Positions 1 through 60,616 of a stretch of 64,000 nucleotides of DNA are shown in pieces; the first letter of the stretch is position 1, and each line of letters opens with the position of its first letter. This DNA is from Octopus vulgaris (Eukaryota). Under the pieces are notes generated by a model. The model had not been told where the DNA came from and made no database searches. It saw only the letters and a program-made list of their open reading frames with translations. Location: the NCBI GenBank assembly GCA_951406725.2, contig OX597825.1, positions 1,860,001 through 1,924,000 of the forward strand, written 5' to 3'. The position numbers were made by a program, and so were the translations under genes.

Positions 1-407
1 TAATATTCCGATCTCTAACGGTTACTGATTCTTAACATAGTATTAGGTCGCAAATTTTAGAGAAAGGTGTTGTTCGCTAAATCGACCTAAATATCAAACT
101 GCTACATTATTCTATGGACTACAAACAGAAACCAGAACCCGAAGGTACGCAATGTACTACCACAATGCATCTGCCATCCGCTGTCGTAAATTCCTTAGCA
201 CTGAGTTCTAACAAACTTGAAAACAAGAATATGGAGAAGAAACTAGTCAATTCAACCAGTAACAAGACTCGACTGAGATCTACTTAATCGACCCTGGGTG
301 AGGATGAAGGGTAAAATTTATCTCGCGGGGAATTGGAGTATCAAAGGGACAAAGTATAAGTGTCAATTAAAGGTATATTTTAAATGAGAATGGTAGTTGA
401 GATTAAC

Positions 408-608
408 CCTTTCGGCTGTAGGTACAGGCCTGAAACTTTGGGGGCGGGGGTAATCAATCACATCGACCCCATTACCGTTACTTAATTTATCGATCCGAAA
501 GGATGAAAAGCGAAGTCGATCTCGGCTGAATTTGAACTCAGGACCTAAAAACGAACGAAATGCCGCTAAGCATTTTGTCCGGCGTGCTAACGATTCAACC
601 AGCTCGTC
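408..608 (-). mobile_element. tRNA-derived SINE, family A
   Basis: Matches >10 other copies in the window; minus strand has a B-box-like GAGTTCAAATTC and the core CTTTTCATCCTTTCGGATCGATAAATTAAGTA. Confidence 0.85.
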
Positions 609-1268
609 AGAAACGGAATGTTTTATTCAAGCATATGTGATTCACAGATCAAATTTTTATGAACATTTTTTTTTTCTCTCTTATAGAAAGGAAGAGTCCT
701 GAAATGCCAGGATATTCCTTTGACTGTGGCGGACTTATTTTCCTGCATCTATAAACTTCACTACAGAATTCTGTTGGTGTGATATATAAATATGTGTGTG
801 CGTGTGCTTGTGCGTGTGTGTGTGTGTGTGTGTGTGTACATACAAACACATGCAGAACACATTTATACGCAAATACACACACACACACACACACGATCCT
901 GTGCATTTGGTCGTCTGCGTGTCTGTGGATAATGGTCCATAGCACCGTGAACGATAAGTTCAGAATACTTTCCTGAATGAATTCTTTGCCTAATCTCACA
1001 TCACACCATAATACTTTCCTCTGGGTTAGTGTGCTTTCTTTCTTTCCTGCCTTCCTTTTTTCCGTTTTTATTTTTATTTTTATTTATTTGTTTTTTTTTG
1101 TTTTTTTTTGTCCACATACAAATTTGAACTCTGTTCAACAAAGCGACAAGACAAGAACTCATCATGCATGCAGTACTTCGGTGGATTCCAATGCCTGCCA
1201 GGACGTTTATGTGGTCGGTATGCACACGAATACTTACTTACTTACGTACTTACACATACACACACACA

Positions 1269-1303
<35 letters not shown>

Positions 1304-1451
1304 AAGTAGATGAATAAAAAATGGTGAAGTAAATGTCTTCTCGACAACAACCCATTGCGGTGTGCATTTTAGACAATATGACGACGACCAATAACCTAGT
1401 GCTAGGTCAACTACATAATGCGTGTATGGTCTAGATTTTATTCCGGGGACT

Positions 1452-1545
1452 ATACATACATACATACATACATACATACATACATACATACATACATACA
1501 TACATACATACATACATACATACATACAGACATACATACATACAC
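1452..1545. repeat. (TACA)n microsatellite
   Basis: Direct reading. Confidence 0.95.
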
Positions 1546-1751
1546 ACATGTATATATATGGTATTGTACATATATTATTTTATGTGTGTGTGCGTATATG
1601 CGTGTTTGCGAATATGTTGACACGTATATCTATAAAAGTTTCCATGCATATGGAATGAAGTTCCTTTACTTCTGCATACATATACTGAAATTGAACACCA
1701 AACTTACATACATACACACATACTTACATACATACATGCATAAATACATAA

Positions 1752-1806
<55 letters not shown>

Positions 1807-2780
1807 TATATGATTCTTCTTGATTGCTACACCTCTGTAATCCAGATTAGAATATTGTCAACAGACTGATACAAGTTTTCTGTTTAGACTCTAGTACTGG
1901 ATTTACCATTGTGCTTAGGTCTACTAAAGCGCAGGCCCCGTTGACCAGGTGGGGGGGGATCTACCTGCTCCCAAAACATAATACGATGAATTTGCTGAGC
2001 ATGTATGCCTAACTGTCCAAGTAAGGGACCTCATAACGTAACTAGCACAGGGCCTTGATTTATCCTAAATCCGGTATTATTAGGCCTATGTACTTTGGAG
2101 AAAGATTTGGATTGGCCGAACAAGAAAAATAACTTTCGGACACGGCTGCGCGATGGCAGTTCCTTGATAGATAACCACAGGCCCTGACAGAATTAGTGAT
2201 TGAACTTTCTTGTGTAGGCCCTGTTGGAACTAATATAATAGATAGTGTGTTCAAAGAGATAGTGATTTGTGTATATAAAACCTACACATGCATGTAGAGG
2301 AATGAGAAAATGGTTTCACTCAAAACTATAAAGAGAGAGAGAGAGAGAGAGACAATACGTATATGAAGAAAGTATCTTGTACATCAAACTTCCTAACTTT
2401 AGACAATATGTAATCAAAACTCTAAATGTCTATAAAAGCGATAGACACCATTAATTCTTACGATCATTTCTTATGATATCATAATCATAGTTACTATGAC
2501 TATGTGATATCGTAGTGTCAGAAAATATTCGAATGACTACTGATGCCCTACAAAGTTGAAGTAAGCTCGACAGTTCTGTAAAACTCTATACAAACTTCCT
2601 AAATGACATCAAAAAGAAAACCATCAGACTCATTGACAAAGACTCACCCGTTAATACAAAATCACAAACACAATGCAAAGTCTAAACCGCGAGTGGAATC
2701 TCGTCACTCTGATCTGTTGTCAGGCTAAACAGTCACTTCGTCCTCTCCCTCCAAATTCCGTTTGCCACGACCATCTCATT

Positions 2781-2905
2781 TCAGAACGTGGAAGTGAACG
2801 AAATGCGTTGCAGCATTTCGTCCAGTCTGCTAACGATTCTACCAGCTCACCGCCTTTTTAAGAATTTCGTCCGGCGTGCTAACGTTTCTGCCAGCACGCC
2901 GCCTT
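2781..2905 (-). mobile_element. Two adjacent 5' head fragments of SINE family A
   Basis: GCTAACGATTCTACCAGCTCACCGCCTT and GCTAACGTTTCTGCCAGCACGCCGCCTT are reverse complements of the family A head. Confidence 0.75.
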
Positions 2906-3335
2906 CGTCGACCATCTCATTTCATTTCCTTCTTATCCTCTGTGCTCTGCGCTAATCATAGAGACTTATTTGCTTTCTTCGTAACACCAACTCTATGAAG
3001 TTCCCTTACTGATGCATACATATACTGAAATTGAACACCAAACTTACGGTTCTTTACAAGTCTATTAGAACACATGACAGGTGCACTGTTCCTTCATGCT
3101 TATTAGACCTTTCAATAAACACACACACACACGTCAATATGTATGTACGTATACATGCAGGCATACGTACATGCACACACCCACTCACACAAAGACATAC
3201 ACATGTCTGTATTATCTATGCACATATGCATGCAAGTTTATATACATGCACACTTAGACACGCGCGCATAAAGAGACAGACAGACAGATAGATAGACACA
3301 AATATTGATATAGATGTATTTAAATAAATATAAAT

Positions 3336-3573
3336 GCGCCCTTTTAAAGCCTGGCCAGGCTCATGGGCCCAGTTTCCCGGTTTCAATGGCGTATGTGTTC
3401 CCCAGCTGGATGGGACGCCAGTCCATCGCAGCAACGTGAAATGAAGTGGACTGGAGCAACGTGAAATGAAGTGTTTTGCTCAAGAACACAACGCGTCGCC
3501 CTGTCTAGGAATCGAAACCACAATCTTACGATCATGATGCTGCCAGCCTAACCACTAAGCCACGCGCCTCCAC
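3336..3573 (-). mobile_element. tRNA-derived SINE, family C, with 11-bp TSD-like flanks
   Basis: Minus strand starts GTGGAGGCGCGTGGCTTAGTGG (A box) and has GGTTTCGATTCC (B box); TATAGATGTAT at 3309-3319 and 3575-3585; internal 18-bp duplication GCAACGTGAAATGAAGTG. Confidence 0.85.
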
Positions 3574-4024
3574 GTATAGATGTATACATACTTATTTAAA
3601 TACGTACAGATACAGAGACCTACACAGAAGATTAGATTAAAAGACTGTCAGATTTCGATGTGTTTCATATCGTCACCAAACATTAATCTGATTTTATCAA
3701 CTTTTATATTCGTTCATAACCTTCTCTACATTTTAAATACTATTTTTACGGATCAGCATATTTCTCTCACGTATCACGGTATCATGATATATTTATCTAC
3801 CTCTGACTTTCTTTCTTGATCTATGTATTCACTGAGTGCGTGCTTGTGCACGTGTGTGTACATGAATGTTTAATTTTCCGTTATTCTGTAGAGAGTATAT
3901 TGCAACTAAGCTAGTTCGCCAGCTGTAAGTACTGCTTTTGCAGTAAAGTATGCTTCCTACGCGAGTGTATGCATGTATGAATGCATATACTTATGTGTAC
4001 ATATATCATATACACACGCGTATA

Positions 4025-4090
<66 letters not shown>

Positions 4091-4095
<5 letters not shown>

Positions 4096-4408
4096 ACTTA
4101 TAAACATCTAATTATTGAAGTGGAAAAATTATCAGAAAAAGCCATTTCTATTCTTTCTTTTCATCTACATATAAATATATATAAACTACAGTGTACATTT
4201 AAACACACAAGGAATCCACTCATGGGATTCAACACGCTGGAAAGAACAGCTAGGTTCTATAACCACAAAATTAGGGATAACATTCGACAGCATTCCTTAT
4301 GTGTTTAAATGTACACTGTATTTTATGACTAATACATAGTCTTTGGACTAAATGTTTACACGTTAGGCCACTGGAAGTGATAATTTCTATTAATTTCCAT
4401 TTCCCTTT
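4091..4408 (+). mobile_element. TA-flanked PLE pLTR-like remnant with inverted repeat
   Basis: Inverted repeat 4187-4215 / 4292-4320 (29 bp, few mismatches); the reverse complement of the right end resembles the 5979 terminus (CCAGTGG..TAGTC..AGACTAT..AATACAGTGTAC). Confidence 0.6.
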
Positions 4409-4495
4409 GATATGATTATATATATATGTGTATGTGTGTGTATGTGTGTATACATGTATATATATATACAAACATACATATGCATATATATGTAT

Positions 4496-4822
4496 ATATT
4501 GTTGATAGTGAATTCGAGGTTTCGACCAGTTAAGCCATCGTCAGACTGCAAGGCATTAGAGTTAGTCTTTCTTTTATATAGCCTCTGTAGAGTGAAGAAT
4601 TATCTTTGTGTGTGTGGGGGTGGGCTGGAGTGAGGTGGTAAAGGTAAGAAGACTAAATCTAATGCATCGCAGCCCGACGATGGGTTAGCTGGGCGAAAAC
4701 TTCAATGTCACTGTCAACAACATTCTTGTAGAAGAATAATAAATCTGTGCTCTACAGAAATACGGAACAACCCAACAGATGAATGTAAAATTGTTTTTAT
4801 CATAACTGATTGAACAAACATT

Positions 4823-4825
<3 letters not shown>
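4496..4825 (+). mobile_element. Old inverted pLTR pair, each arm with a decayed hammerhead motif
   Basis: Arms 4496-4569 and 4649-4723 are about 80% reverse-complementary by eye; consensus AGT-CTGACGA...GAAAC...GTC-ACT; tail runs to (TG)n. Confidence 0.6.
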
Positions 4826-4890
<65 letters not shown>

Positions 4891-5270
4891 CTGCACACGA
4901 CCGAGTATTTAAGGCATCACTCGGAAATGAACTGCCTTTTAACAATGTCTGATGAAAACTGAGGACGAGCGCAAGGTGGGATAACTTATTGACTGCTACA
5001 AAGTCGTCTCTCTCTAGCTCGGAACACTACAAATATAGAACAGAACGGGCGTATCTATTGTTACGTATTACCTGACTTATTTTTCTCATGTCAGCCGCTA
5101 TGCGCTGACTTTGTATTTCTACGTATCACGCTCAGAAACAAGAAGTTTTGATAATCCGCAAAGCTTCTTTGCTAAAATTAATATACTAAGATAAGATAAT
5201 ATCCACAATGCGTCAACGAAATATTTGTCAATTTCAGCGACAGGACAACGCACTTTTACAGGTAAACATG

Positions 5271-5312
<42 letters not shown>

Positions 5313-5978
5313 ACGGGGAGTGTGTCGTTAAAAGCCTGACTGGAGGTTCAACATTCCGTGTTCGTTCACAGAACTTAGAAAATTTGAAGGACCGTTGCAG
5401 TATATATATATTTTTATCTCCAGTATATTTTAAAAATCCAAATCGAGGAACTTTGTTGCACCCCTCGTATGTCTGTCTGTCTGTACATACACACACACAC
5501 ATATACATACGTGAGTGCGTGCATATGTGTACGCACTTTACATATGTGCGTTGGTTTGTATATATACGTGTGTGTGTGTAAGTATCTATATATGTATGTA
5601 TATGTATATAAATATATACATACTCACACATACACAAATACATACATGCATACATACATACAAACATACACACACACATGCATACATATAGAAAACAGTT
5701 GCTGATTCATTGGTAAATTACGTGAATCTTGTGTGTGGATCAGGGACACATGTGAATAATCATGAATGGTAATTGACGTCTGTGTGAAACTCTGAGTAAG
5801 AAGAAGAGTGAATCACCGATTGTTAACATAAGAATATGAATCTCTGAACAATGTATTCGTCGGTCATTTCTTAGCATTATGTGGATAAACAGGTGTACAT
5901 GTGTGTGTGGGTGTGTGTGGGGGAGTTACATGAGTGCATATATATACATACATACACAAGCGCATATATATATATATA

Positions 5979-6585
5979 TTAAAAGTTTAGGGTAGCAAGA
6001 ATATTTATCAGAAAAATTCTTAGTTACCAGTGGTCTAAGCGAGAAGGAAAAAATGAGTCAATAGACTATATATTATTCAAAGAAGAATACAGTGTACGTT
6101 GAAGCAACCCAAAGAATAGGATATCTGACTCGCTAGAAAGAGCAGTTAAACTCCAAGCCTCTAATTGTTGTAATTCCGAAAGTGATTGAAAAATAAAAAC
6201 TTTTACCTTAATCCTAGACCCTGCAAGGTTTCTGCAGCCTTAAATACAGATTGAAATAAGATAATTTCAGTCTATACCTGGCGCTGCATCTTCTGTAGGT
6301 TGCCAAGACTGAACACACAGACACGGAGCTATAAGTAATCAGCCACGTGTTTAGAGGTTCTAATTCTTCGAATCCACCGCACAAATGCAGAACTCAACCA
6401 GCACTAAATAAATAAATTGCCCATTTTCTTCCAAAATTTGCCAAAAAACATTTTAGCATTAATTAAAATCTTAGGGTAGCAAGAATATTTATCGAAAAAT
6501 TCTTAGCGAGAAGGTAAAAATTAGTCAATAGACTCTATATTATTCAGAGAAGAATACAGTGTATTCTGTACAATGTACACTGTAT

Positions 6586-6593
<8 letters not shown>
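5979..6593 (-). mobile_element. Partial-tandem PLE pLTR / retrozyme-like element (484-nt period)
   Basis: Direct repeat starting TTAGGGTAGCAAGAATATTTATC at 5987 and 6471; short inverted copy 6576-6593 of 6546-6563; flanked by (TA)n and (TC)n(TA)n; contains a hammerhead motif. Confidence 0.7.
6213..6299 (-). ncRNA. Type I hammerhead ribozyme with long stem II (one core substitution)
   Basis: Minus strand: CCTA-CAGAAGA-TGCAGC...GCTGCA-GAAAC-CTTGCAGG-GTC-TAGG. Stem I CCTA/TAGG, stem II TGCAGC/GCTGCA plus inner hairpin, near-palindromic stem III; core reads CAGAAGA instead of CTGAAGA. Confidence 0.75.
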
Positions 6594-6661
<68 letters not shown>

Positions 6662-6776
6662 TTACATACACACACATATGTATATGTGTGTGAGTATACG
6701 CACACACATATCTCAAGTATATTTATATACAGAGAGAAGGGGAGGCTGTAATACACTTAAATGTAGATAGACAGAC

Positions 6777-6859
<83 letters not shown>

Positions 6860-7392
6860 CACACAAAAGAAGAACACATCGTTGAAACCATTTCTTCTCT
6901 GCGTGTGGACTTATGTTGTTTGATGTCTAAGTGACATGTAAGCTCTTTTATCACGGAGGACTGGGAGTTGATGTCATTTCGACAGATATAGCAGGTCTAT
7001 TTACTGACATCTAGGCAGACAGAAAGATTAAGGAGACTGACTGGTTGTTCAGTAGGCAAAGCCGGCAAGGTATGCCATGCAATCAGGCAAACAGGCTGAC
7101 ATAATTACTCTCAGGCACAACACATATTGTTTATTCAGTATGTTGATTAGCTAATTTATTGAAACAATCTTTCGTGTCTCTTGTATTTTCAACGCAGTTT
7201 CTGTTGAGTAAAAATAAAGAAAAAAGAAAAGAAATGGGAAAAAAAACTTTACGCCCAATGAGCGAGTCTCTTTTGCGTTTTCTCTCAATTCGCTAGAAAT
7301 ACCAGGCGGATCTTCATCACTACATTCTACAATGTTAATTCATATTGCACAATATTCCTAGTTTTGCATTTCGTTCTATCTCCCTCTGTCTA

Positions 7393-7425
<33 letters not shown>

Positions 7426-7544
7426 TTCTCTCTCTTTCCCTCTCTCTCTAGTCATTGATATTAAAAATAGAAAAATGGTTACGGTAGCAATGCTACTGAA
7501 TGACTTATTATGTCGGCTTATCTCAGGCTGAAGAACAGCAATAA

Positions 7545-7747
7545 TCTTTTCTACTCTAGACACAAGGCCCGAAATTTTTGGGGAGGGGGACAGTCAATTA
7601 GATCGACCCCAGTATGCAACTGGTACTTAATTTATCGAACCCGAAAGGATGAAAGGTAAAGTCGATCTCGGCAGAATTTGAACTCAGAACGTAAAGACAG
7701 CTAAGCATTTCGCCCGGCGTTCTAACGTTTCTGCCAGCTCGCCGCCT
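7545..7747 (-). mobile_element. SINE family A, near full length
   Basis: High similarity to other copies; head GGCGGCGAGCTGGCAGAAACGTTAG on minus strand. Confidence 0.9.
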
Positions 7748-7779
7748 AAAATAAACATCCAATAAGGTTGACTCTGCAG

Positions 7780-7913
7780 TCAATGGGCGACCTTTTTTTG
7801 AGAAGACATGGCCCATCATCAGGTGGGCCTCAAACTAAATGAAAAAACAACACAAGTTTAAGTTTCGTTAGGCGTGCCATTTAGAAAGTCCCGTGGGCTG
7901 CGGTTTGCCCATA
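7780..7913. mobile_element. Possible decayed hAT-type MITE
   Basis: Ends ATGGGCGACC and CCCGTGGGCTGCGGTTTGCCCAT are imperfectly inverted and resemble hAT terminal/subterminal motifs; no TSD found. Confidence 0.3.
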
Positions 7914-8352
7914 AACAACGGATTCGCTTGATAACCCATGATCTAAAGATGCTACATGTTGGATAATGTAATATGACAAGAACGGGAAAAAGACGGGTAA
8001 GTCATAGACTAATTACCGTAGATCAAAGCTCTGCAGGAATCAATAAATCCGAATGCTAAAATAATTCTTTGCAACGAACCATTATTATAACTGCTAAATT
8101 CATTACGCCTTCGTAAGATTGTGGTTTCGATTGTGGTTAATCTATTTATTTCATTATTTATCTATTTAATTTTAAAGCAAATTTTGTGAGCGACAGCGTT
8201 GTTGCCAATAGGTTTGCAACAGGCCATTCAGTGATTCGTTTATTCAACGTGTTTACCCTCGAATAGAACAAACACCACAAGATGTTTTTTAGTCGAAAGT
8301 ACCGGTTTACCGATTTTCTCGCTAATGTACACAAGGATACACACATTCATAC

Positions 8353-8414
<62 letters not shown>

Positions 8415-8418
<4 letters not shown>

Positions 8419-8569
8419 CAAAATAAGCAACAAGGATACCCAGAGGTAATGCAGCTGTTGCTTATTTTTATTGTAATCACCACATTTCAAATTTTATGGA
8501 TAATACCATACTAAATTCTGGTGCCTTTAATTTAAGTACCATATTCAACTGAATCTAAATTTTACTGAA

Positions 8570-8572
<3 letters not shown>
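8415..8572 (+). mobile_element. Short TA-embedded insert with inverted repeat plus tail (PLE-like)
   Basis: AATCAAAATAAGCAACA and TGTTGCTTATTTTTATT are inverted; ~100-bp unique tail; (TA)n on both sides. Confidence 0.5.
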
Positions 8573-8619
<47 letters not shown>

Positions 8620-8665
8620 TGTATATATATACATATATATTTGTGTGTGTATGTATATATATGAA

Positions 8666-8721
<56 letters not shown>

Positions 8722-9597
8722 CACATACATATATATATTCAACATGCTTCTATTTCCGTGCTATTTTTTTAAGTAGACATGGTCATAGCTCTAATATAAT
8801 CTATGTGTATTATTCATTGAACATTTTTACAATAAACACCTCCTCATTTTTTTGAATGCGATAAAATGTGCGATGATTAAGGAGATTAAGAAGATGATGC
8901 ATGTCTATAGTACCATGCATTAGCGCCGAACACGAAACTCCGGGGCTGCGAAGTAAACTTGTTAACCACACAGCCCTGCCTACGTCTAAAGTAGTATAAT
9001 TCCTGACTTCGGATGTCTGCCACCATTATTGACTATTTCGCTTTTGATGCATTCGTCACTTTCCTTCATCATCCTGATTGCTTACATCATATCTGTTGCA
9101 AGAATACTTAACCATTTACTGCTTTTATCGTTCTTACCTTTGTTTTCTGTCTTTTTTTTTGTATGTGTTGTGCGTGTGTGTGCGCGCACGTTGTTGTTGG
9201 TAGGAGTGTGTGTGTGTGTGTGTGTGTGTGTGTCTTTCTTCTCCCTTCTATCTTCTAATTAACACTATTTTTATCACTGCTTCATGTCTCGTTTAAGTAT
9301 GTCATCGTTATCGACTTCACCCGAATTATCTCTCTGCAGCCAGTCAGTCGTGAAGTAAATTGAAGTAGAATCGTCTAACTGGGAATCGATTTGAAACTAG
9401 GTGGGTGGTAGACGCAATATGAGTTGTACCTCTTTATAGCGTGAGTTCAAATCCCGCTAATAACAAACTTGTATTTCATTCTTTCAGAAATTGATGTGAT
9501 AAAGTACCTATCTTACAATGCGGTAGATATGATCGACTATTCCTTTCCCCAAATTTGAAATGTATCTTGGTACGATATCAATATTTTGTTATGGAAA

Positions 9598-9812
9598 GGC
9601 GGCGAGCTGGCAGAATGGTTAGTATGCCGGAATAAATGCTTAGGGGAATTTCGTACGCCTTCTAGGTTCTGAGTTAAAGTTCCATCTAGATCAACTTTAC
9701 CTTTCATTATTTCGAGGTCGATAAAATGCGTACCCGTCAAACATTGGGGGTGGTATAATCGACTAAGAGCCCCTCCTGAATTTGCTGGCCTTGTGCCAAA
9801 ATATGAAACCAA
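9598..9812 (+). mobile_element. SINE family A
   Basis: GGCGGCGAGCTGGCAGAATGGTTAG head, core and 3' GGCCTTGTGCCAAAA. Confidence 0.85.
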
Positions 9813-10564
9813 TAATTAGTTACGGAATGTTTTACGTTCTGATTTTAAATCCCACCGTGGTCGGACTGACTTTGATTTTAACTTGTGAAATGTTCGATCC
9901 TAATTTTAGCCGTAGATTAACAATGATTACATTATCCAAACTTTCCATCATTATTTTAAGACGGTAAGGTGTGATTGGAGGGACATTTAGCTCCTGTGTC
10001 TAGCAGGCGATTCTTTCTGAAGCCACCCATTTGTTGGTTTCGACCTACGTATTGTTTTCAGATGGAAAAATACATTACTTCAATTGAGAATTGTATTCGG
10101 AAAAGCAATTTATATATTTGCATTCCTATTAAAAACAGCAGCCAATAAACCACAACAAAATTTAATCTGTGTACAAATAAAACTAACGAACAGACACACC
10201 AGAGAATTCGCACCGGATTTTGATAAAGTTTTGGTTGCTGCGAGGAGTAAAGAATTTAACGCTTCGGGCTTTGCACTTCGTCAGGAAGCGAACAAGATAA
10301 AGAAAGTGTTGTTGTTTTGAGTGCGATGCAGCAAAAGAAAACGACATAGACAACCGTGTGATGTAGGTGTGTGTGTGTGTTTGTTTGTTGTGTCAATGAC
10401 ACTTTCTAATGAGGAAATTGCTAGCATTTTTACGTTGCATTTGCCTGTGTGTGTTTGTGTGTGTGTGTGTATGTGAGTGTGTGTGTATGTGAGTGTGTGT
10501 GTGTTGGACCACTGAACTCACCACGCTTTCTTCCATTCTCTCCCTATTTACTTCCTCTTCTTCC

Positions 10565-10692
10565 TCCTTTATGTCGCAGAGCGTAGGCTCGAAAAGGTAA
10601 GAGATTTCCCATTTTTCCCGAGCAGCAAATTAATACACTTACTTGTTGTTCCTACACCGTCTTCGTTTTTGTTTTTCTAAAAATTTGAACTA
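10565..10692 (+). mobile_element. Retroelement 3' end with decayed minimal hammerhead-like motif, joined to TA
   Basis: GAGC-GTAG-GCTC hairpin followed by GAAAAGGTA; terminus GTTTTTCTAAAAATTTGAAC-TATA recurs as GTTTTTCTGTAAATTTTAAC-TATA at 17433-17456. Confidence 0.4.
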
Positions 10693-10771
10693 TATATACA
10701 TACATACATACATAAACTGACAAACAGACAGATAGACAGATGTGTAGTTGGGAACGAGAGATTGCATGTCA

Positions 10772-10772
<1 letters not shown>

Positions 10773-10839
<67 letters not shown>

Positions 10840-11000
10840 GTATGTATGTATGTATGCATGTATCTATGTATGTATGTATGTATATGTATGTATGTATATG
10901 TATGTATGTATGCATGTATGTATGTATGTATGCATGTATGTATGTATGTATGTATGTATGTATGTATGTATGTATGTATGTATCAATGTATGTATAACAG
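10773..11000. repeat. (TTTC)n followed by (TATG)n microsatellites
   Basis: Direct reading. Confidence 0.95.
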
Positions 11001-11310
11001 TATAACATCTGTTGTGCACTAAATACTTCTCTTCGCTTGTATAAATGTTTTGTGTTTGTTTTGCTCCTGTGGCGCATAAACATTTTATTACTAATTCCAC
11101 GATTATCTTACTTTTCGCTTCTCATATTTTCATTGCGTGATTTCCCTAAAACGCACATTCGCAGCTCTTTTACCTCTTTGGTATTGTGCAGTCTCTCGTT
11201 TTTGTTTTTTGTGATTTTCCTTTTCCTTATTTAAAGTATTCGACGAATGCCTCGTAGTGCTACTTTCTGAGTGTTGCATATGTTTATGAGTCCTTTTATA
11301 TATATATATA

Positions 11311-11433
11311 TACCGGGGTAAACACATAAATGTGAAAGAAGGTGGAAAAAAAGAGTACTCAAATACCAGTGGTAGAGTAATATGCTTTATCTAAAGCAGC
11401 AGAAAATTAGAATTTTCTGCTGCTTTAAATAAA

Positions 11434-11438
<5 letters not shown>
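11311..11438 (-). mobile_element. TA-embedded fold-back insert (28-bp arms plus ~70-bp tail)
   Basis: TATGCTTTATCTAAAGCAGCAGAAAATT-AG-AATTTTCTGCTGCTTTAAATAAAGTATA; tail contains CCAGTGGT, shared with other TA-anchored termini. Confidence 0.6.
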
Positions 11439-11988
<550 letters not shown>

Positions 11989-11992
11989 GATC

Positions 11993-12170
11993 TTGAGCTG
12001 ACAGAATCGTTAGCACGCCGTGCGAAATGGCGACGTTTCGTCCGTCTTTACGTTCTGAGTTCAAATTCCGCCGGGGTCGGCAAAATAATTACCTGCTGAA
12101 TATTGGACTTGATGTAATAGACCTACCCACTCCTCTGAAATCACTAGCCCTGTGCCAAAATTTAAAATCA
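11993..12170 (+). mobile_element. SINE family A (internally deleted)
   Basis: Head, GAGTTCAAATTCCGCC and 3' end recognisable. Confidence 0.8.
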
Positions 12171-12180
12171 ATGTTTTAAA

Positions 12181-12362
12181 GGCGGTGAGCTGGCAGAATC
12201 GTTAAGGTCGCCGGACAAAATGCTTAGCGGCATTTCGTCCTTCTACCGAGGTCGACTTTGCCTTTCATCGGTTCGGGGTCGATGAAAAAGTACTAGTCGA
12301 GCAGTGGGGTAATCGACTATACCCTTCCCCCAATCTCAGGCCTTTTGCCTATTGTAGAAAGG

Positions 12363-12421
<59 letters not shown>

Positions 12422-13685: not shown

Positions 13686-13757
13686 CCTATATATTTTGTA
13701 AGCAACCTCTGTATTGTAATTTCTTATTGTAAAATCCCACATCCACTAGTGGCATTA

Positions 13758-13950
13758 GGCGATGAGCTGGCAGAACCGTTAGCACGCCGGGTGAAATGCT
13801 TTCTCCCTGAGTTCAAATCCCGTCGAAGTTGACTTTGCTTTTTATTCTTTCGAGGTCGGTCAATTAAGTACCAGTGAATTACCGGGGTCGATGTAATCGA
13901 TTAGTCCCCTCTCCCATAGTTTCAGACCTTGTGCCTTTAGTAGAAAGGAT
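13758..13950 (+). mobile_element. SINE family A
   Basis: Head, core and TAGAAAGGATTATT end. Confidence 0.85.
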
Positions 13951-14689
13951 TATTATGATTATTCGTACTAGCCGAAGACTTGTCTTTTCGCTCGTAAGTT
14001 ATTTTCTATTTAAATTTTTGTTTGCAAAACGCTCGTTAAAACTACAACCATTTCGTAGGATTTAGAGGCAAATTTTCACTTTGAAAAAGCAATCTTATAA
14101 ACAAGTAACCTTGATAGTGAATTGCAAGACAAGTTAGAGTCCTCCGCCTTCCCCCCTCAACTGGGAGGGGAGGGGAGCGCTCACCAAGTTCAAAGTACAG
14201 TGTACCATACTAATCCTATGACAACAGCTGCAGCAACAACAACAACACTGCACGGGAATTTAATTCTAATAATGAAGCTGAATTACCTGCAATGAATGAG
14301 ACAATACCAAAAACACCCAACAGCAGCAACAATAAGAATACGAGCACAGCAACTTTCAACTTCACCACCAGCTCTACCACCACCCGTCCCCACTCCACCC
14401 TTCGTCCAGAGTTCGGGTATTGCTGACTTGTGGATCTTCATCAAACAGCTTTTGATGCGTGAAGGATGGATCCCTGGTGAGCATCGCTCTCCTGCCTTCC
14501 TTTGACCAGGAAGCAAGTTTTCCTCTGACTGGTGTCTATGGCGCAAGAGGTAGTTTGATGGACAAGGTTGAAAAGGACTGAAGACGGATACTTTCCTCTT
14601 CGGCCAAGCCCACATCGACTTTTACAAGTTCCACTTGAAAAGCAAGTGGTAGTGACGGACAAACACAGGAACAAAACACACACACACAC

Positions 14690-14845
14690 ACTCACAACTG
14701 CCAGTTGTCGTTCACCAAATCCACTGACAAGGTTTTGGTCAGCCCGAAGCTATAGTAGTAGGCGTTATCCAAGGTGCCAAGCAGTGGGACTGAACCAGAA
14801 CCCTGAGGACGGGGAGCAAACTTTTTACCACAAGACCACCCTTTT
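14690..14845 (-). mobile_element. SINE family B, 5' part (diverged)
   Basis: CAAGGTGCC..GCAGTGGGACTGAACC matches the copy at 35563-35590. Confidence 0.7.
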
Positions 14846-24116: not shown

Positions 24117-24858
24117 TTAAGGATGAGTTGGACTAAATTATCTGATATGACTTTTTCTTACTGAATGCAATAAGATATAATTTGAGAGGTTTGGCGGCGA
24201 ATTTCTGAAAACTCAGCGACCTCTTGTATGATCTCATGTTAATTTATGTAATAAGGTCAATGCTAGAATGAGACAGTCACAGCGTGTCTGGATTAAATTA
24301 CCTGTACAGTGGTTTTGAATTCAAATCTATTGCATTTTCAGGCAGACACTTTTTCTACAATATCTCATTCATGCAATTTAAGTGTTGGAACTAACGGAAC
24401 AATATGGGAAATATCAATTGTGAAAGAAGGGCAGACAATCCAGGTTAAGGTGTATATTTCAACTTGTTCACATCATGGATGAAGAAATAAGAAGAGGTCC
24501 CTAAAAGCCACACGATTCCTCTAGACTCATTTATCTTTATGTACGAAACATGTTCATGTTGAGGTCAATGAATCCAAAAATGAGAAACAATAAAGACGAC
24601 GAGATGGGAGAAGATATGACACTGACATGCGTAAGAAAACTTAACAGTTTATTGAAGCAGAGTTAGTCGGGCAGAGGTATTATTGTGATTGGTAGAATTG
24701 TTGGTGCATCGGTTAAAATGCAAAGCAGGATTTCTTTTAGGCCATTTTGCCTTTCATCATACCAGGGTCGATAAAGTAAATCCTGGGGACAATGTATTCG
24801 AGTAACTCAAAAATTTCAGGCTAGAGTATAACGGATGATAAAAACTGTTATAATTCTT

Positions 24859-25047
24859 AGTACGCCGGACAAAATGCTTGGCGGCATTTCGTTCATCTGT
24901 AGGTCCTGAGATAAAATTCTGCCGAGGTCGACTTGGCCCTTTATCCTTTCGGTGTCGATAAAATAAATACCAGTTGAGCACTGGGGTCGATCTAATCGAC
25001 TTAACCCCTCCCTCCAAATTACAGGCCTTGTGCTTTTAGTAGAAAAG

Positions 25048-25113
<66 letters not shown>

Positions 25114-37567: not shown

Positions 37568-38169
37568 TTTCGGTTGTGGCAACAATTACGAGATTAACAA
37601 TAACACGAACAATAGCAAATGTCGGCGGGTGGTGGGGGCATAAGTCAATATCATCGACCCCCAGTAGTACTTCACTGATGTATATTTTATTGACCCCGGA
37701 AAGACGTAAAGAAAGAAACAAACAAACTGATATCGACGTTAATCGAACTCAAAACCTAAATGACAACAGCATCATGAACAACAACAATAATCATTGTTTC
37801 TGGCATAGAGCTGAATTTCAGGAGAAAGATTAGGCGATGCCATTATTCTAAGGACGTAACTGGTACTCGATTTTGATCGATTTCGATCGATCTCGAAGAG
37901 ATATAATGTTAACTGGATTAGGTAGGGTTTGAACTCAGAGCAAAGTATCTGTATAGAGCAAGACATAATTTTTCCAACGTTCTTCCATTTGGGCCAACTC
38001 ATAAATAACAAGAATAATAACTATCATTTGTAAATTTGCCCCAAGGGCATATGTCATGAGGGGAGGGATATAGTCAATGTTATTATTCAGCATGTTCACT
38101 TGCACTTTATAGTTTTTAGCGAGGTCGCCATGGATGGATGCAACTCGAATCCGTCGGCAGGATAATCCT

Positions 38170-38618
38170 ATTAAAGCACAAGGTCTGATATTTTAGGTGG
38201 GGCGTCTTGTCGATTACATCGACCCTAGTGCTTGACTGCTACTTACTTCATCGACCTCGACAGGACGACAGGATGAAAGGCAAGGTTGACCTCGGCAAAA
38301 TTTGAACCCGGAACATAAAGACGGACGAAATGCTGTCAAACATTTAGTCCGGCGTGCTAACGACTCTGCCAGTTCGCTGTCTTATTAACAACTGCTTTCA
38401 AATTTCAAATTTGACACAAGGCCAGCAATTTCGCTTGAGGGGTTAAGTCGATTACATCGATCCCAGTGCTCAACTGATACTTATTTTATCGACATCGAAA
38501 GGGTGAAAGGCAAAGTAGACCTTGGTGGAATTTGAACTCAGAACGGTGAAGCCAAGCGAAATGCCGCTAAGTATTTCGCCCGGCGTGCTAACCACCTTGC
38601 CAGCTCGTTCGCCTGCCC
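38170..38618 (-). mobile_element. Two tandem SINE family A copies (38170-38383, 38393-38618)
   Basis: Each has core and head matching the family. Confidence 0.88.
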
Positions 38619-39809
38619 TAACAACACTAAAATTAAGACAAGCAGAAGTAATTACAATAAAACAGATGAATCCCCTAAACAATCCCTGTTTTAGGATTAA
38701 CCTAAGTGTAACACTGGGTGATAGAGGGTGGGGTGGATATTTGTATTTTAAACCCAGGTTGACCCTAAACGTGCAGCCAATTGCCAGAATTTCAAACCGT
38801 TTCCTTTTTTATTATTTCTTTCTTTATTTATTTCTTCATTTATTTATTTATTTTATTTTCGAGCAAGTTATTTATCCAGTATCTTTTAAAGAGTGTACTG
38901 AGACATGAGGAAGATTTGGCTTCTATTTCTAACCGATCGGAAAAGAGCACATAGAAGTCACCTCATTATAAGTAGCACATATTGAAGTATATATTTATAT
39001 ATATATATGTATGTATGTATATATATATATATATGTGTGTGTGTGTATGTATATATATATATATTTGTATGTATATATATATGTATATATGTATGTGTAC
39101 ATGGACATGTATGTATCTATGTATGGATGGATGTGTGTGCATATATATATATGTGTGTGTGTGTATATATGCGTGTATGTATGTATGTGTGTGTGTGTGT
39201 ATATATGGGTGTATGTATGTATATGGATGTAGCGAGAGAGAGAGAAGGTACGAGTGCGCGTAGGCTGTCGTGTATGCGTGCATGAACATGTATGTTTGTG
39301 TCTAACTCAACAAAAACTATGATGACTCCTAGCATAGGCACAGGATCACAGAGTTTGTTGGAAGAAAGACTGGCAAATCGATCTCCCGTCCATCACTGCT
39401 GCATTTTCTGTTGTCACCGTCCCCAAATGAGGTAAGACGAAATTTGACCGCGTCAAGTTTTCAACTCGCAGCATGGGATGAGAAAAACAAGATGAAGAGA
39501 ACCCAAGCGGAGGTAAAGAGGCTTGAAAAAAGAAAAAAAGAAAAAAAATACCCGCAAAAATATATCTACCAGTTCTACCACAGCAATAACACAGAAAAGC
39601 ACAAAGCTTTCTGTCAGTGTATAGTAAAATAGGTGTTTGTTACAAAAATGGATGGGAATGTGTGAGAGATGAAGATATCTATCTAGCTGGATAGTTAAGC
39701 TGTCGAGATGGAGAGATAGTAAAACTGTGTCTTTCCGTGTCGCGCCGTACCGTGACGATGTATGCGTTAGTATACATATACATACATACATATACATATA
39801 TGTATATAC

Positions 39810-46664: not shown

Positions 46665-46749
<85 letters not shown>

Positions 46750-46941
46750 TACAAAATTAGAGAATGGAGAAACATACTTAAATCAATAAAACATCAACTA
46801 TCCGATGATATTCAATCCATACTTTAATACACCATTACATAGGAGTAAAGGCAATATATAAAATGAAATGAGATATACAGTAATAGTAAAAAGATAAAGA
46901 GATATAAGTAAAAAATTACAAATACAATATGCAAATAAATC

Positions 46942-47057
46942 GAAACTGACAGCTGTTTCGGCAGTGAGGACAGTCATACCTCATTTAACCTATAAGCCAT
47001 AAAGGCAGGTATAAATGAGGCATTAACAAAGATGCCCCACGGCCTCTTCAGAGAATT
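46942..47057 (-). ncRNA. Type I hammerhead ribozyme (mirror copy)
   Basis: Reverse complement of 47935-48050. Confidence 0.8.
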
Positions 47058-47395
47058 AAATTAAGTTTGTTATAATAGTGAAAAATATTATATAATCATA
47101 TACATATAAATATAAAAATATAAAAAAGTAAAATATAAAAACTTATACATCATAATGCTACACTTGTATAATATAATACATATTTGTACAAAAAGGAAGG
47201 TAACCAGAACAAAATAAAACAAAATATATAACAGTGTATATATAATATTAATAAGTACCGATATCATACATATTTAGCTAATAGTTTTTTTTATAAAAAA
47301 AGGGGCTAACACATATGGAGATGAAAAATAATAATAATTAAATCCGTGGTACAGTTCATAAAATTCTAAAGCTATAAAAGTTAATAAAAATTACT

Positions 47396-47429
<34 letters not shown>

Positions 47430-47564
47430 GTAATAATAATAAAAAATAATAAAAATAGATACAGTTAAGTTATCACCAAGTCCATCCTTCCAAGATCGAA
47501 ATAACTATGAGTTAAGAAATGCTGACCACTAGGTAAAGAAAATTTAGATTATTATTATTATTAC

Positions 47565-47598
<34 letters not shown>

Positions 47599-47934
47599 AG
47601 TAATTTTTATTAACTTTTATAGCTTTAGAATTTTATGAACTGTACCACGGATTTAATTATTATTATTTTTCATCTCCATATGTGTTAGCCCCTTTTTATA
47701 AAAAAAACTATTAGCTAAATATGTATGATATCGGTACTTATTAATATTATATATACACTGTTATATATTTTGTTTTATTTTGTTCTGGTTACCTTCCTTT
47801 TTGTACAAATATGTATTATATTATACAAGTGTAGCATTATGATGTATAAGTTTTTATATTTTACTTTTTTATATTTTTATATTTATATGTATATGATTAT
47901 ATAATATTTTTCACTATTATAACAAACTTAATTT

Positions 47935-48050
47935 AATTCTCTGAAGAGGCCGTGGGGCATCTTTGTTAATGCCTCATTTATACCTGCCTTTATGGCTTAT
48001 AGGTTAAATGAGGTATGACTGTCCTCACTGCCGAAACAGCTGTCAGTTTC
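47935..48050 (+). ncRNA. Type I hammerhead ribozyme with ~85-nt stem II
   Basis: CTGAAGA (47941); stem II GGC.GTGGGG/CCTCAC.GCC enclosing ATGCCTCATTTA/TAAATGAGGTAT; GAAAC (48033); palindromic stem III ACAGCTGT; GTC triplet with predicted cleavage after 48044. Stem I is short (CT/AG). Confidence 0.8.
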
Positions 48051-48608
48051 GATTTATTTGCATATTGTATTTGTAATTTTTTACTTATATCTCTTTATCT
48101 TTTTACTATTACTGTATATCTCATTTCATTTTATATATTGCCTTTACTCCTATGTAATGGTGTATTAAAGTATGGATTGAATATCATCGGATAGTTGATG
48201 TTTTATTGATTTAAGTATGTTTCTCCATTCTCTAATTTTGTAGTATTAATTTACGGTAATATTATTACCCTTACCCATTTAATACAATAGATGAACTGAT
48301 TGCTTGACAATTTCTAACATCTATGTATTAATTTTTGTTGGGTACCTATCTAGCAGTATATTGGATATATATTATCCCATGGTGGGTTGAATTTTCAACC
48401 CCTATCTCATTTTATAATATATATATATATATATAAATATATATGTATGTGTGTGTGTGTATACATACATATATTTCTATATATATACATATACATATTA
48501 TATATATATGTATACACAGACATACATATACGCATATATACATATTTGTATGTGTATATATTATATATATATACATATATTTTATATATGCATATACATA
48601 CATGTACG

Positions 48609-53702: not shown

Positions 53703-54511
53703 AGGTGTGGTTTTGTGGTAAAAGGTTTACTTTCCAGCCACGTGGTTTCGGGTCCAGTCCCATCGCGTGACGCCTTGGGCAAGTGTATTCTACTATAACA
53801 TCGGGCTGACCAAAGCCTTGTGAGTGGATTTGGTAGACAGAAACTGATGTGTGTGTGTGTATATATATATATATATAAATAATTAAAAGGGCGGGCAACA
53901 GGCTGCTTCGCCGCATACCGAAGGAATTAGAAATGGCAGCCAAAGACTATTTTTTCCATTTTCTACAAGTGGAGATTCCATATACGACAAACCCTGCGAT
54001 TCACATACGCAAAATCGGAGTAGCAAATAAACGAAAACAATCTCTTACCGTTAATGATGAACATGTTTCTAGATCACAGGCTAAAAATTGCCTGATTTCC
54101 TTCGTCAACACCATATTCGATAGATTTACCAAATGCCACCGGCCTTCACCTCTGACCAAGCGACATCAGATAGTGGGGGGAGGTGTGCAGTTGTTAAAAC
54201 TAAGTAATGACTGGGACCGTAAATTTTCCCTCCAAAATTCTGCTATGCGCGCCACCTGGGTGATCGCAATGGAGTAAGAAATCCACATGGTAATACAATA
54301 AAGGGGTAAATAATTTTTCCGTGGTTTTTCGTACAACCAACAATTATTTACCAGTAAATTTCGGTATGTAAATATGACTTTTAGCGTTAGGAACTACAGA
54401 AGTTCCTGACGTTAAAAGTCATATTTACATACCGAAATTTACTGGTAAATAATTGTTGGTTGTACGAAAAACCACGGAAAAATTATTTACCCCTTTATTG
54501 TATATATATAC

Positions 54512-56302: not shown

Positions 56303-57193
56303 ACCACAACAAAGAACGATACACTGCGAATGTGAAAACGATGGCATAAATACAGCTGGACTGTTGCAATATATTTTCTTTACTTTCGGCAATGGCCATC
56401 AGTTGGGACTGAAAGCAGCAAGGAGCTTCTTTATAGAGACGTTTTGTTGTTGTTTCTGGTGTTATTGATGTTGCGTTGTCGTTGTTATTGTTGTTTAATG
56501 AAAAGTAAAGCACCGATGGAGCGGACCTCTCATCACAGACAGTGTCAGCCATTACCATTCTGCGTAATGTAGCTTGGAGTGATTTAATCTGTTTCATTTC
56601 CTCTTTGTAGCGGGTACAGTCTATTTTGAGGGAGATTTGGCTACCATTTCTAGTCATTGGTTCATACAGCCCCCTCTTTTTGTTGCTGCTGCTGTTGTTT
56701 AGCATCGAGTTCAACTGTGGACACCCATCTTTTTACCATATCAGCATTTGCGTTGCCCGAGATATCCATTAGTTTTTAGAAGAATAGAGCGTAACCGGAG
56801 TGCCATTTGTCTGCTATTTCTTACCTAGAAACTCATTTCTTGGTTCCTGTTGCTCCAATATTTGCTTGTAAGTAGAAATATAAAATGATTTTAAATAACG
56901 GTGCAAGGTATTTGAGTAGTTCATATGTTGCTGTTTACGATTTCCTGTCCAAGCCTATCCTAAGTCTACATTAATGTTTTCTAGTGTTATATTCGAATAC
57001 AAGGCGGAAAAAAATTCAGAAGAAAACAAATGGCTGGCTTAATGATTTTTGCTTTGTACGTTTTGCTTAAGAAACTGAATAATGTATAATTATTTTTTAT
57101 ATACGTGTAAAGCCATTATAAAGACGGTGATATTGTGTACACAACACGTATTGTTATTTTATAAACGGTTTATAATATTAATTGCTTAATTAA

Positions 57194-57415
57194 GGCGGTG
57201 AGCTGGCAGAGTTGTTAGCACGCTGGACAAAATGCTTAGCGCCATTTGGCCTGTTCGTTCTTACGTTCTGAGTTCAAATTCCACCGAGTTCATATTTACC
57301 CTTCATCCTTTCGGGGTAGATGAAATATGTACCACCCAGTTGATTACTGAGGTCGGTATTATTGACTTATCCTTGCACCTGATATTGCTGGCCTTGGTCC
57401 AAAATTTGAAATCAA
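57194..57415 (+). mobile_element. SINE family A
   Basis: Head, GAGTTCAAATTCC and core. Confidence 0.88.
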
Positions 57416-57941
57416 TATTATTTGTCTATTTTTGGCTACAATCTATGGTATTTAAATGAAATATGACATTCTTGCGACATTTTGTTCTTGCAAAAATTGT
57501 CATTTTTTCCCTTAAATATAATTTTCATGCGACTTTATTTCTGTTCACCTTCGATTCCTTTCCCATTGAGGTCATCTTCATTTTCATCATTCCTAGAATG
57601 ATAAAATAAAATACCAAGTTTGTTGTTTGATTTAGTGTCGTTTTATCTTCAGTAATTTAGCGATTCGTAAAATACTGATCAATAAAGTGAGAATCAAACT
57701 AAAATCAGTACTGGAATCGACTTAATCGCTTCCATCCCCGTCCTCACCAAATGAGTGACCTTGTACTAATATTGGGAATCAATATTCAGGGGCATGATAT
57801 CAGCAGGCTTCATCAAAATCATTTGTGATCATTCTTAACGACATCACATGAAGACCGAATCTCAAATTTGGCTTTGCTCTTCAAGGCCAGAAGATAATTT
57901 AGTCCCTAGGAACTACTGAAAAGGGGCCCAGAGATATCTTT

Positions 57942-60388: not shown

Positions 60389-60616
60389 TTTCTTTATTAC
60401 CCACAGGGGGGCTACACACAGAGGGGACAAACAACGACAGACAAACGGATTAAGTCGATTATATCGACCCCAGTGCGTAACTGGTACTTAATTTATCGAC
60501 CCTGAAAGGATGAAAGGCAAAGTCGACCTCGGCGGAATTTGAACTCACAACGTAACAGCAGACGAAATGCGGCTAAGCATTTCGCCCGGCGTGCTAACGA
60601 TTCTGACAGCTCGCCG
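60389..60616 (-). mobile_element. SINE family A, alternative 3'-end subfamily
   Basis: Family A head and core, but the 3' end is TTTGTCCCCTCTGTGTGTAGCCCCCTGTGGGTAATAAAGAAA instead of GGCCTTGTGCC. Confidence 0.88.

Follow-up and report, generated by a model that had tools for sequence, protein, structure and literature searches.

Animal non-LTR retrozymes are described as low-GC tandem units of 150–450 bp with canonical type I hammerheads (PMC7229834), and abundant retrozyme circles have been reported from coral, mussel and axolotl (PMC7229834; PMC7761336). In the accessible text of a recent preprint, Li, Clavereau and Pollet (2026) relate retrozymes to pLTRs, record many monomers, and call only arrays with two hammerheads active, with cleavage in one of nine Xenopus dimers in vitro (10.64898/2026.07.22.740005). 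Penelope-like elements (PLEs), as described in PMC8557442, leave partial tandems and an inverted 5'-truncated copy at (TA)n targets, and supplement S2 of that study shows Hydra-clade and PLE-X hammerheads in which the base of helix II has one unpaired letter on either side and, in many rows, helices I and III are 4 bp long. The core search in that study permitted a spacer of only 7–17 nt, and the cephalopod Naiads that it describes are TA-targeted, two of them being flagged as "half core". For an anole PLE, an internal start of reverse transcription and nicking of AT-rich DNA have been described in vitro, together with a hammerhead that needs the protein for cutting and is dispensable for insertion (PMC11167929), and a circular template has been proposed for PLE insertions of more than one unit (PMC4209133). 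A repeat annotation of Octopus vulgaris counts 31 recently active Penelope-like families, the accessible part of its text making no mention of ribozymes (PMC13282606).

Here we describe an element of about 0.6 kb in a 64 kb stretch of DNA (the window, whose coordinates are used throughout), which comprises about 1.2 copies of a 484-nt unit and one hammerhead. We consider it likely that the element is a decayed member of a repeat family that encodes no protein, most plausibly a non-autonomous PLE or animal retrozyme monomer, and that a Penelope-like RT/endonuclease inserted it into a TA microsatellite. Elements of this kind are already known from many animals, and the long helix II is the sole unusual trait. 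Our literature search, which lay mostly outside subscription journals and covered hammerheads and retrozymes of cephalopods as well as PLE hammerheads with a long helix, found no paper on this family.

Architecture of the repeat unit and its flanks

Bases 5978–6096 repeat at 6462–6563 with a period of 484, which bears out the recurrence of the terminal segment reported in the initial annotation. Positions 5978–6015 correspond to 6462–6499 at a spacing of 484 and 6034–6096 to 6501–6563 at a spacing of 467, with 96 of the 102 aligned positions alike (blastn E 8e-29); the deletion ascribed to the second copy is present, its size being a net 17 nt and not the ~15 bp given. On the minus strand, the full non-coding unit (5980–6463, GC 35.5%) is preceded in the RNA sense by a 5'-truncated, pseudo-LTR-like partial unit (6464–6563, also minus), which is the partial tandem of Penelope-type insertions. 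Beyond the partial unit stands the small inverted piece that had also been reported, a plus-strand arm of 21–24 nt (~6570–6593) that mirrors 6544–6563 head to head and runs into (CT)n, in the place and orientation of the inverted 5'-truncated copy found at the 5' end of such insertions. An (AT)8 microsatellite at 5964–5979, read directly from the sequence and without strand, adjoins the RNA-sense 3' end of the element and is its likely insertion target, and the other flank (6590–6659, likewise) consists of (CT)20 and then (AT)15. The element is therefore bounded at both ends by (AT)n/(TA)n, and its microsatellite target carries no clear target-site duplication, as in Penelope-type insertions.

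As a short, low-GC unit lacking an ORF, the element resembles the metazoan non-LTR retrozymes, which are described as non-coding head-to-tail units of a few hundred bases with GC below 50% and one type I hammerhead per unit, dispersed monomers being common, and for which PLE origin or mobilisation has been proposed (PMC7229834; 10.64898/2026.07.22.740005). Its length lies slightly above the 150–450 bp of the former source and within the 51–972 bp of the latter. Unlike them, it holds only 1.2 units with one hammerhead and pairs weakly with itself: self-pairing of the unit is unremarkable (z −1.51), with 5 of 100 shuffles equally stable and 60% of the letters paired as a circle. The two-hammerhead array that the preprint asks of an active retrozyme is absent here, and the locus fits its "monomer" class only; by that rule it is a monomer derivative and not an active retrozyme, and, since it carries one hammerhead, it cannot on its own release a monomer. 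The short non-autonomous PLEs of the Chlamys type, MRC1 among them (PMC8557442), are comparable in having pLTRs, head-to-tail insertions and a dependence on autonomous PLEs. They differ in being algal and, in the published description, generally without a hammerhead, and in having a partner known by 3' likeness, of which the window unit shows none to the cephalopod Naiad ends and Hydra-1_Obim compared with it.

A six-frame scan of window positions 1–12000 (X at stops) yielded no Pfam family at E 0.01, in keeping with the ORF-less character first ascribed to the unit, and the unit alone gave two matches at E 0.08–0.3, both under the curated cut-offs. Neither the unit nor positions 1–12000 contain an RT or GIY-YIG remnant, and no ORF for RT and GIY-YIG adjoins the repeat in that range, as it would in an autonomous PLE. 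Two readings made by eye, one GIY-YIG-like on the plus strand at ~6070–6150 and one resembling an endonuclease tail upstream of the hammerhead, were dropped for lack of Pfam support; family insertions near 6104–6106 would shift the frame of the former.

The hammerhead at 6213–6299

The minus strand from 6299 to 6213 is predicted to fold as a type I hammerhead, with a stem I of 4 bp, the first core box CAGAAGA (6295–6289), a helix II region of 56 nt (6233–6288), GAAA at 6232–6229, a near-palindromic helix III (6218–6229) of 4 bp with a palindromic tetraloop, and a GUC site after 6217, the predicted cut falling between 6217 and 6216. The helix II region, which makes up the whole spacer between CUGANGA and GAAA, forms in this copy a stem of 6 bp and an inner hairpin of 15 bp (6279–6242). 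The motif has a fold z of −2.06, and in a constrained fold the active form is less stable than the MFE structure by 1.1 kcal/mol (−26.1 against −27.2). Helix III is computed at −1.7 kcal/mol as a hairpin, and at −18.9 kcal/mol when two molecules form a 12-bp duplex. A hammerhead descriptor that tolerates any one change in CUGANGA, chosen after the motif had been seen, matches a single site in the 64 kb and none of 3000 dinucleotide shuffles of the element, and together with the fold this agrees with the minus-strand hammerhead, one per unit, of the initial annotation. At 6294, U4 of the core is A, such that the window copy lacks the complete core found in the family. From the conservation of the hammerhead core, U4A would be expected to impair cleavage.

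With its 4-bp helix I and a basal mismatch in helix II, the motif is a hammerhead of Penelope type and not the canonical 6-bp/4-bp retrozyme type. The idea of a retrozyme-like family with an inactivated copy in the window survives in part: there is a repeat family, its state at the core is CUGA, and the 484-nt unit recurs and bears Penelope-like hallmarks. The sharp choice between retrozyme and ordinary pLTR that had been posed is also softer than it seemed, as the preprint describes animal retrozymes as derived from pLTRs (10.64898/2026.07.22.740005).

Relative to metazoan retrozymes, the motif stands apart in its 4-bp helix I, its basal mismatch and the 15-bp extension of helix II. Among the PLEs of Craig et al. 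(2021, PMC8557442) that insert into (TA)n and carry canonical hammerheads, those of the Hydra clade come closest, along with PLE-X; they share with the element the TA target, the partial tandem with an inverted 5' arm, the 4-bp helix I, the 4-bp palindromic helix III and unpaired letters at the helix II base (C and A in PLE-X1_cBra), and several Hydra families carry a similar AAAAGTT-type run just past helix I. Hydra-clade PLEs differ in that the window unit has no ORF and a helix II far longer than in the Hydra rows, for which the 35-nt loop 2 of PLE-X1_sMoe is a precedent, and Hydra-1_Obim shows by eye no sequence likeness to the unit; the Hydra-clade link is one of hammerhead shape and TA target only. 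The minimal PLE hammerheads of Cervera and de la Peña (2014, PMC4209133) are similar in their short helix I, the extra letter after A9, the retained G10.1–C11.1, a palindromic helix III suited to dimers and a helix II above canonical length. That helix is described there as 6–8 bp, in contrast to the 56-nt spacer here, where an extra A also precedes GAAA.

Rfam returned no hammerhead over the unit even at E 10, only three weak miRNA matches; across the whole window it gave 356 matches at E ≤1, and the 150 that are listed, all to miRNA-type models except for one sRNA model, stay under the respective cut-offs. This silence is what would be expected if the element were a MITE-like or satellite-like repeat whose hammerhead fold is chance or a non-functional relic, a reading that we regard as very improbable given that none of the 3000 shuffles produces the fold, and on which the variation among family copies also bears (see below). 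Searches further afield gave no relatives: 114 viral-contig matches to a long-spacer core pattern, none of which folds as a hammerhead or is like the unit, are taken as chance, and metagenome scans with two motifs, one of 20 nt from the hammerhead and one of 22 nt from the 3' part where depth is high, each returned 0 loci.

Family copies in public sequencing runs

Part of the stretch is contained in 20 of 24 listed public sequencing runs (10 studies, four organism labels). None of the 24 is recorded as RNA, and the evidence consists of contigs, which cannot show ends, strand or circles. Contigs of four runs, X1, X2, X6 and X12, were aligned at 80% likeness (40, 1031, 1024 and 382 contigs, respectively), and those of X2, X6 and X12 are mostly 90–99% alike to the stretch. 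The canonical letter at 6294 makes up 914 of 1059 depth in X2, 2021 of 2112 in X6 and 135 of 143 in X12, which places a canonical core position 4 in 86%, 96% and 94% of the depth, from 9, 12 and 7 contigs. The 86–96% of the depth elsewhere that reads CUGA marks it as the state of the family, and the CAGA of the window copy as a private lesion, in support of the core change that had been claimed; the proposed check that the core is restored in other copies thus has a positive outcome in these contigs. The lone contig across the core in X1 is identical to window 6190–6486 (297 nt), mutated ribozyme included; this run is only guessed to be RNA, and the contig may be DNA or intronic read-through.

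The 40 variant rows listed of 73 leave helices I and III, GAAA and GUC unchanged, whereas N7 (6291) varies between A and G and one loop letter varies. Two variants give better pairing in the helix II extension, 6277 (G·U to A-U in 97–100% of depth) and 6251 (C·A to C-G in 26–52%). Nearly all other depth has C or A, not U, at 6288 and U, not G, at 6238, the latter breaking a stem II pair of the window copy. The stem II that had been called perfect does have 6 bp in the window copy, with U6288-A6233 and C6283-G6238 resting on letters that other copies lack, such that its 6-bp form is seemingly in part a private accident. Read from single-site variants, and assuming no partner changes among the 33 unlisted rows, the family helix II would consist of a basal mismatch (C·A or A·A), 4 bp (6287–6284/6234–6237), an internal loop and an extension of 15–16 bp (6279–6242). 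Overall, the pattern among the listed rows fits a ribozyme under constraint. For a MITE-like or satellite-like repeat, it counts that the variants are unphased, single-site tables being unable to reveal covariation, and that the 6238 variant breaks a pair. The restored family core, the variation at the free N7 and the loop, and the improved pairing at 6277 and 6251 argue in the opposite direction, as do inversion breakpoints that vary between copies (see below), unlike fixed terminal inverted repeats.

The extent of the family copies follows from 32 pieces listed of 2537, the longest listed being 297 nt. The fit ends at 5979 for X2 piece 17 and X1 piece 1 as well, loose ends of X1 run into (TA)n at 6207 and 6453, in keeping with the TA target, and family members appear ~11 nt longer near 6098–6106 (letters between joints 6562/6563 and 6107). 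The junction 6463/6464 is crossed by X12 piece 16 (6355–6499) and X1 piece 7 (6342–6504) with at least 31 letters on each side, while X2 piece 21, from the core at 6295 to 6492 with 23 differences, ends two letters short of the bridging rule. The short ORF-less link of 165 nt is thus represented in X2, X12 and X1 pieces, which extends the claimed recurrence of the 484-nt unit to other copies. Copies with 12–23 differences from the window keep this same link, depth is flat over 6291–6395, no loose end falls within 6208–6452 among the 24 listed of 341, and 1–2% of the aligned X2, X6 and X12 material continues into unlike sequence. On these grounds, the short unit with its ORF-less link is a family trait, although contigs break at branch points, where a rarer ORF-bearing parent could be hidden.

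The same observations weigh on whether the unit is instead a pLTR region or internally deleted copy of an autonomous PLE, the family being mostly 5'-truncated insertions with no life cycle of their own. Such truncation would give the far higher depth in the 3' part, where the summed depth over 6039–6080 and 6123–6164 is 79,000–208,000 (X2 and X6) as against 1,300–2,600 over 6291–6395, with the caveat that depth is not copy number. The hammerhead is moreover of the PLE type, and such motifs are described as mostly dispersed singles, thought to derive from truncated PLEs (PMC4209133). The link retained by diverged copies, the flat depth over 6291–6395, the small share of material running into unlike sequence and the lack of RT/GIY-YIG remnants in the unit or window 1–12000 lead us to regard this as an unlikely account of the family.

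Other copies have inversions of their own, as expected of Penelope-type insertions: in the joint table, 8 of 13 joints change strand, their geometry not being given and their depths being like those of single contigs; they occur at differing breakpoints, and three of these joints are common to more than one run. Joints that go back were rejected as proof of arrays, the reference itself holding two similar copies. Six of 16 inversion breakpoints lie within 25 nt of the predicted cut (binomial p 0.0014), and depth drops at 6207 from 29,080 to 3,220 in X2, from 44,833 to 17,534 in X6 and from 3,102 to 1,017 in X12. Both observations are post hoc, depth swings tenfold elsewhere and sister subfamilies drop out of the alignment at 6156; at this strength, they hint at agreement with a cleaved linear template. 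A diverged fragment of a sister subfamily lies at 4110–4420 (no strand assigned), as two inverted arms of the unit's 3' region by (AT)n, without a hammerhead. It is ~70% like the unit (local score 80 vs a shuffle maximum of 45, 0 of 300) and shares the continuation of the family loose ends at 6097 and of the high-depth sister subfamilies.

No listed piece (≤297 nt) covers the whole stretch, and no two-hammerhead array occurs among the listed pieces. A classical circularising non-LTR retrozyme with long arrays, in which an abundant 490-nt circular RNA is the insertion template, is a stronger form of our preferred explanation rather than an alternative to it, and we find it possible but doubtful. 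The unit length, low GC, lack of an ORF, single type I hammerhead per unit and intact family core are all as expected of such an element, and an insertion of more than one unit is expected from a circular template (PMC4209133). The missing array, the weak self-pairing of the unit, and a 4-bp helix I with a long extension in place of loop 2, unlike canonical coral hammerheads, make us hesitate to go so far.

Proposed life cycle and related elements

Under the preferred reading of a non-autonomous PLE or retrozyme monomer, a multi-unit master locus would be transcribed, and intact hammerheads would cleave at GUC, probably most easily when paired via the palindromic helix III. Cleavage would release a monomer of ~490 nt, with ligation into a circle possible. 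A partner PLE protein, acting in trans, would then nick (TA)n, with reverse transcription starting inside the RNA near 5980. On cleaved linear RNA, the RT would stop at the cut after ~240 nt and leave short copies of the 3' part. A circle or uncut multimer would instead carry it through the ribozyme and beyond one full unit, as in the window copy. Insertion would end with the 5' inversion, and the copy would decay thereafter, U4A in the core being expected to reduce or abolish cutting. The window copy is in this sense a fossil, with little likelihood of any consequence for its host.

Several observations sit uneasily with this scheme. The listed pieces hold no two-hammerhead array, the unit is weakly self-paired, unlike the retrozyme circles described, and only one in nine Xenopus retrozyme dimers was cleaved (10.64898/2026.07.22.740005). 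In the published account of the anole PLE, insertion proceeds without ribozyme cleavage, uncut RNA being the main substrate (PMC11167929). Finally, the autonomous partner that the scheme calls for was matched neither among five cephalopod Naiad ends and Hydra-1_Obim, compared by eye, nor by any of three longer motifs in the PMC8557442 supplement. Identifying the unit with the missing hammerhead of the "half-core" Naiads is likewise unsupported, as the cephalopod Naiad 3' ends look unrelated to it. By eye, the Naiad_Obim and Naiad_Ovul 3' ends in that supplement show a hairpin, GAAAC and, ~20 nt on, a CUGAUGA box, with the core halves permuted; a circularly permuted hammerhead may lie behind the "half core" label.

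The window contains other repeats, among them a second long-arm ribozyme. At 46746–48246, a 1.5-kb palindrome between (TA)n runs has arms identical over 551 bp, each with an intact-core long-arm hammerhead (47941 on the plus and 47051 on the minus strand), and probably arose by a very recent inverted insertion of PLE type from a family unrelated to the unit. The 47941 hammerhead has an 85-nt spacer, a palindromic helix III and only two contiguous helix I pairs (fold z −3.7). In sequence its region is unlike the unit (score 36 against a shuffle mean of 37), which, together with the long arm in both, upholds the earlier description of the two ribozymes as unrelated in sequence and alike in design. 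A stretch at 11478–11850 between (TA)n runs opens with sequence resembling the 3' end of the unit (a 12-mer at 11526 is exact; score 50, reached by 1 of 300 shuffles) and holds an inverted repeat (11567–11627/11785–11847); this could be a third family, more distant and sharing the RT-start region. At 54293–54503 lies a near-perfect hairpin of 208 bp (96.6%) by (TA)n, without likeness to the unit. A dispersed repeat of 150–220 bp, SINE-like by size and number, occurs in copies 70–84% alike at 404–606, 7540–7757, 9586–9814, 12178–12368, 13755–13963, 24845–25062, 38168–38624, 57183–57417 and 60447–60625, and a second dispersed family at 14714, 28261, 30077, 35209, 52832, 53702, 54591 and 57942.

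Significance for animal retrozymes and Penelope-like elements

In this one insertion, a retrozyme unit and the insertion signature of Penelope elements occur together. This supports regarding animal retrozymes as non-autonomous PLEs and, if the host is an invertebrate, extends that view beyond the vertebrates studied. A long helix II is present twice in unrelated elements of one window (56-nt and 85-nt spacers, ~42 kb apart), and it shows that standard hammerhead searches undercount such elements, because Rfam misses the motif and the core search of PMC8557442 permitted a spacer of 7–17 nt. We can suggest only tentatively, and think it rather unlikely in full, that the lineage carries several unrelated Penelope-derived mini-elements with helix II hairpins of 50–90 nt, that a whole class of retrozymes and some "half-core" PLE ribozymes have on this account been overlooked, and that the lengths of their copies record the template. 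Were this so, copies ending at the GUC cut would represent linear cleaved RNA and the minority extending past one unit a circle, and copy lengths would provide a genomic read-out of in vivo cleavage, which is lacking for PLE hammerheads. In vivo cutting by PLE-type hammerheads is left open in the published work on the anole PLE (PMC11167929), and a pile-up of the copies' 5' ends at the predicted cut would be rare evidence that it takes place.
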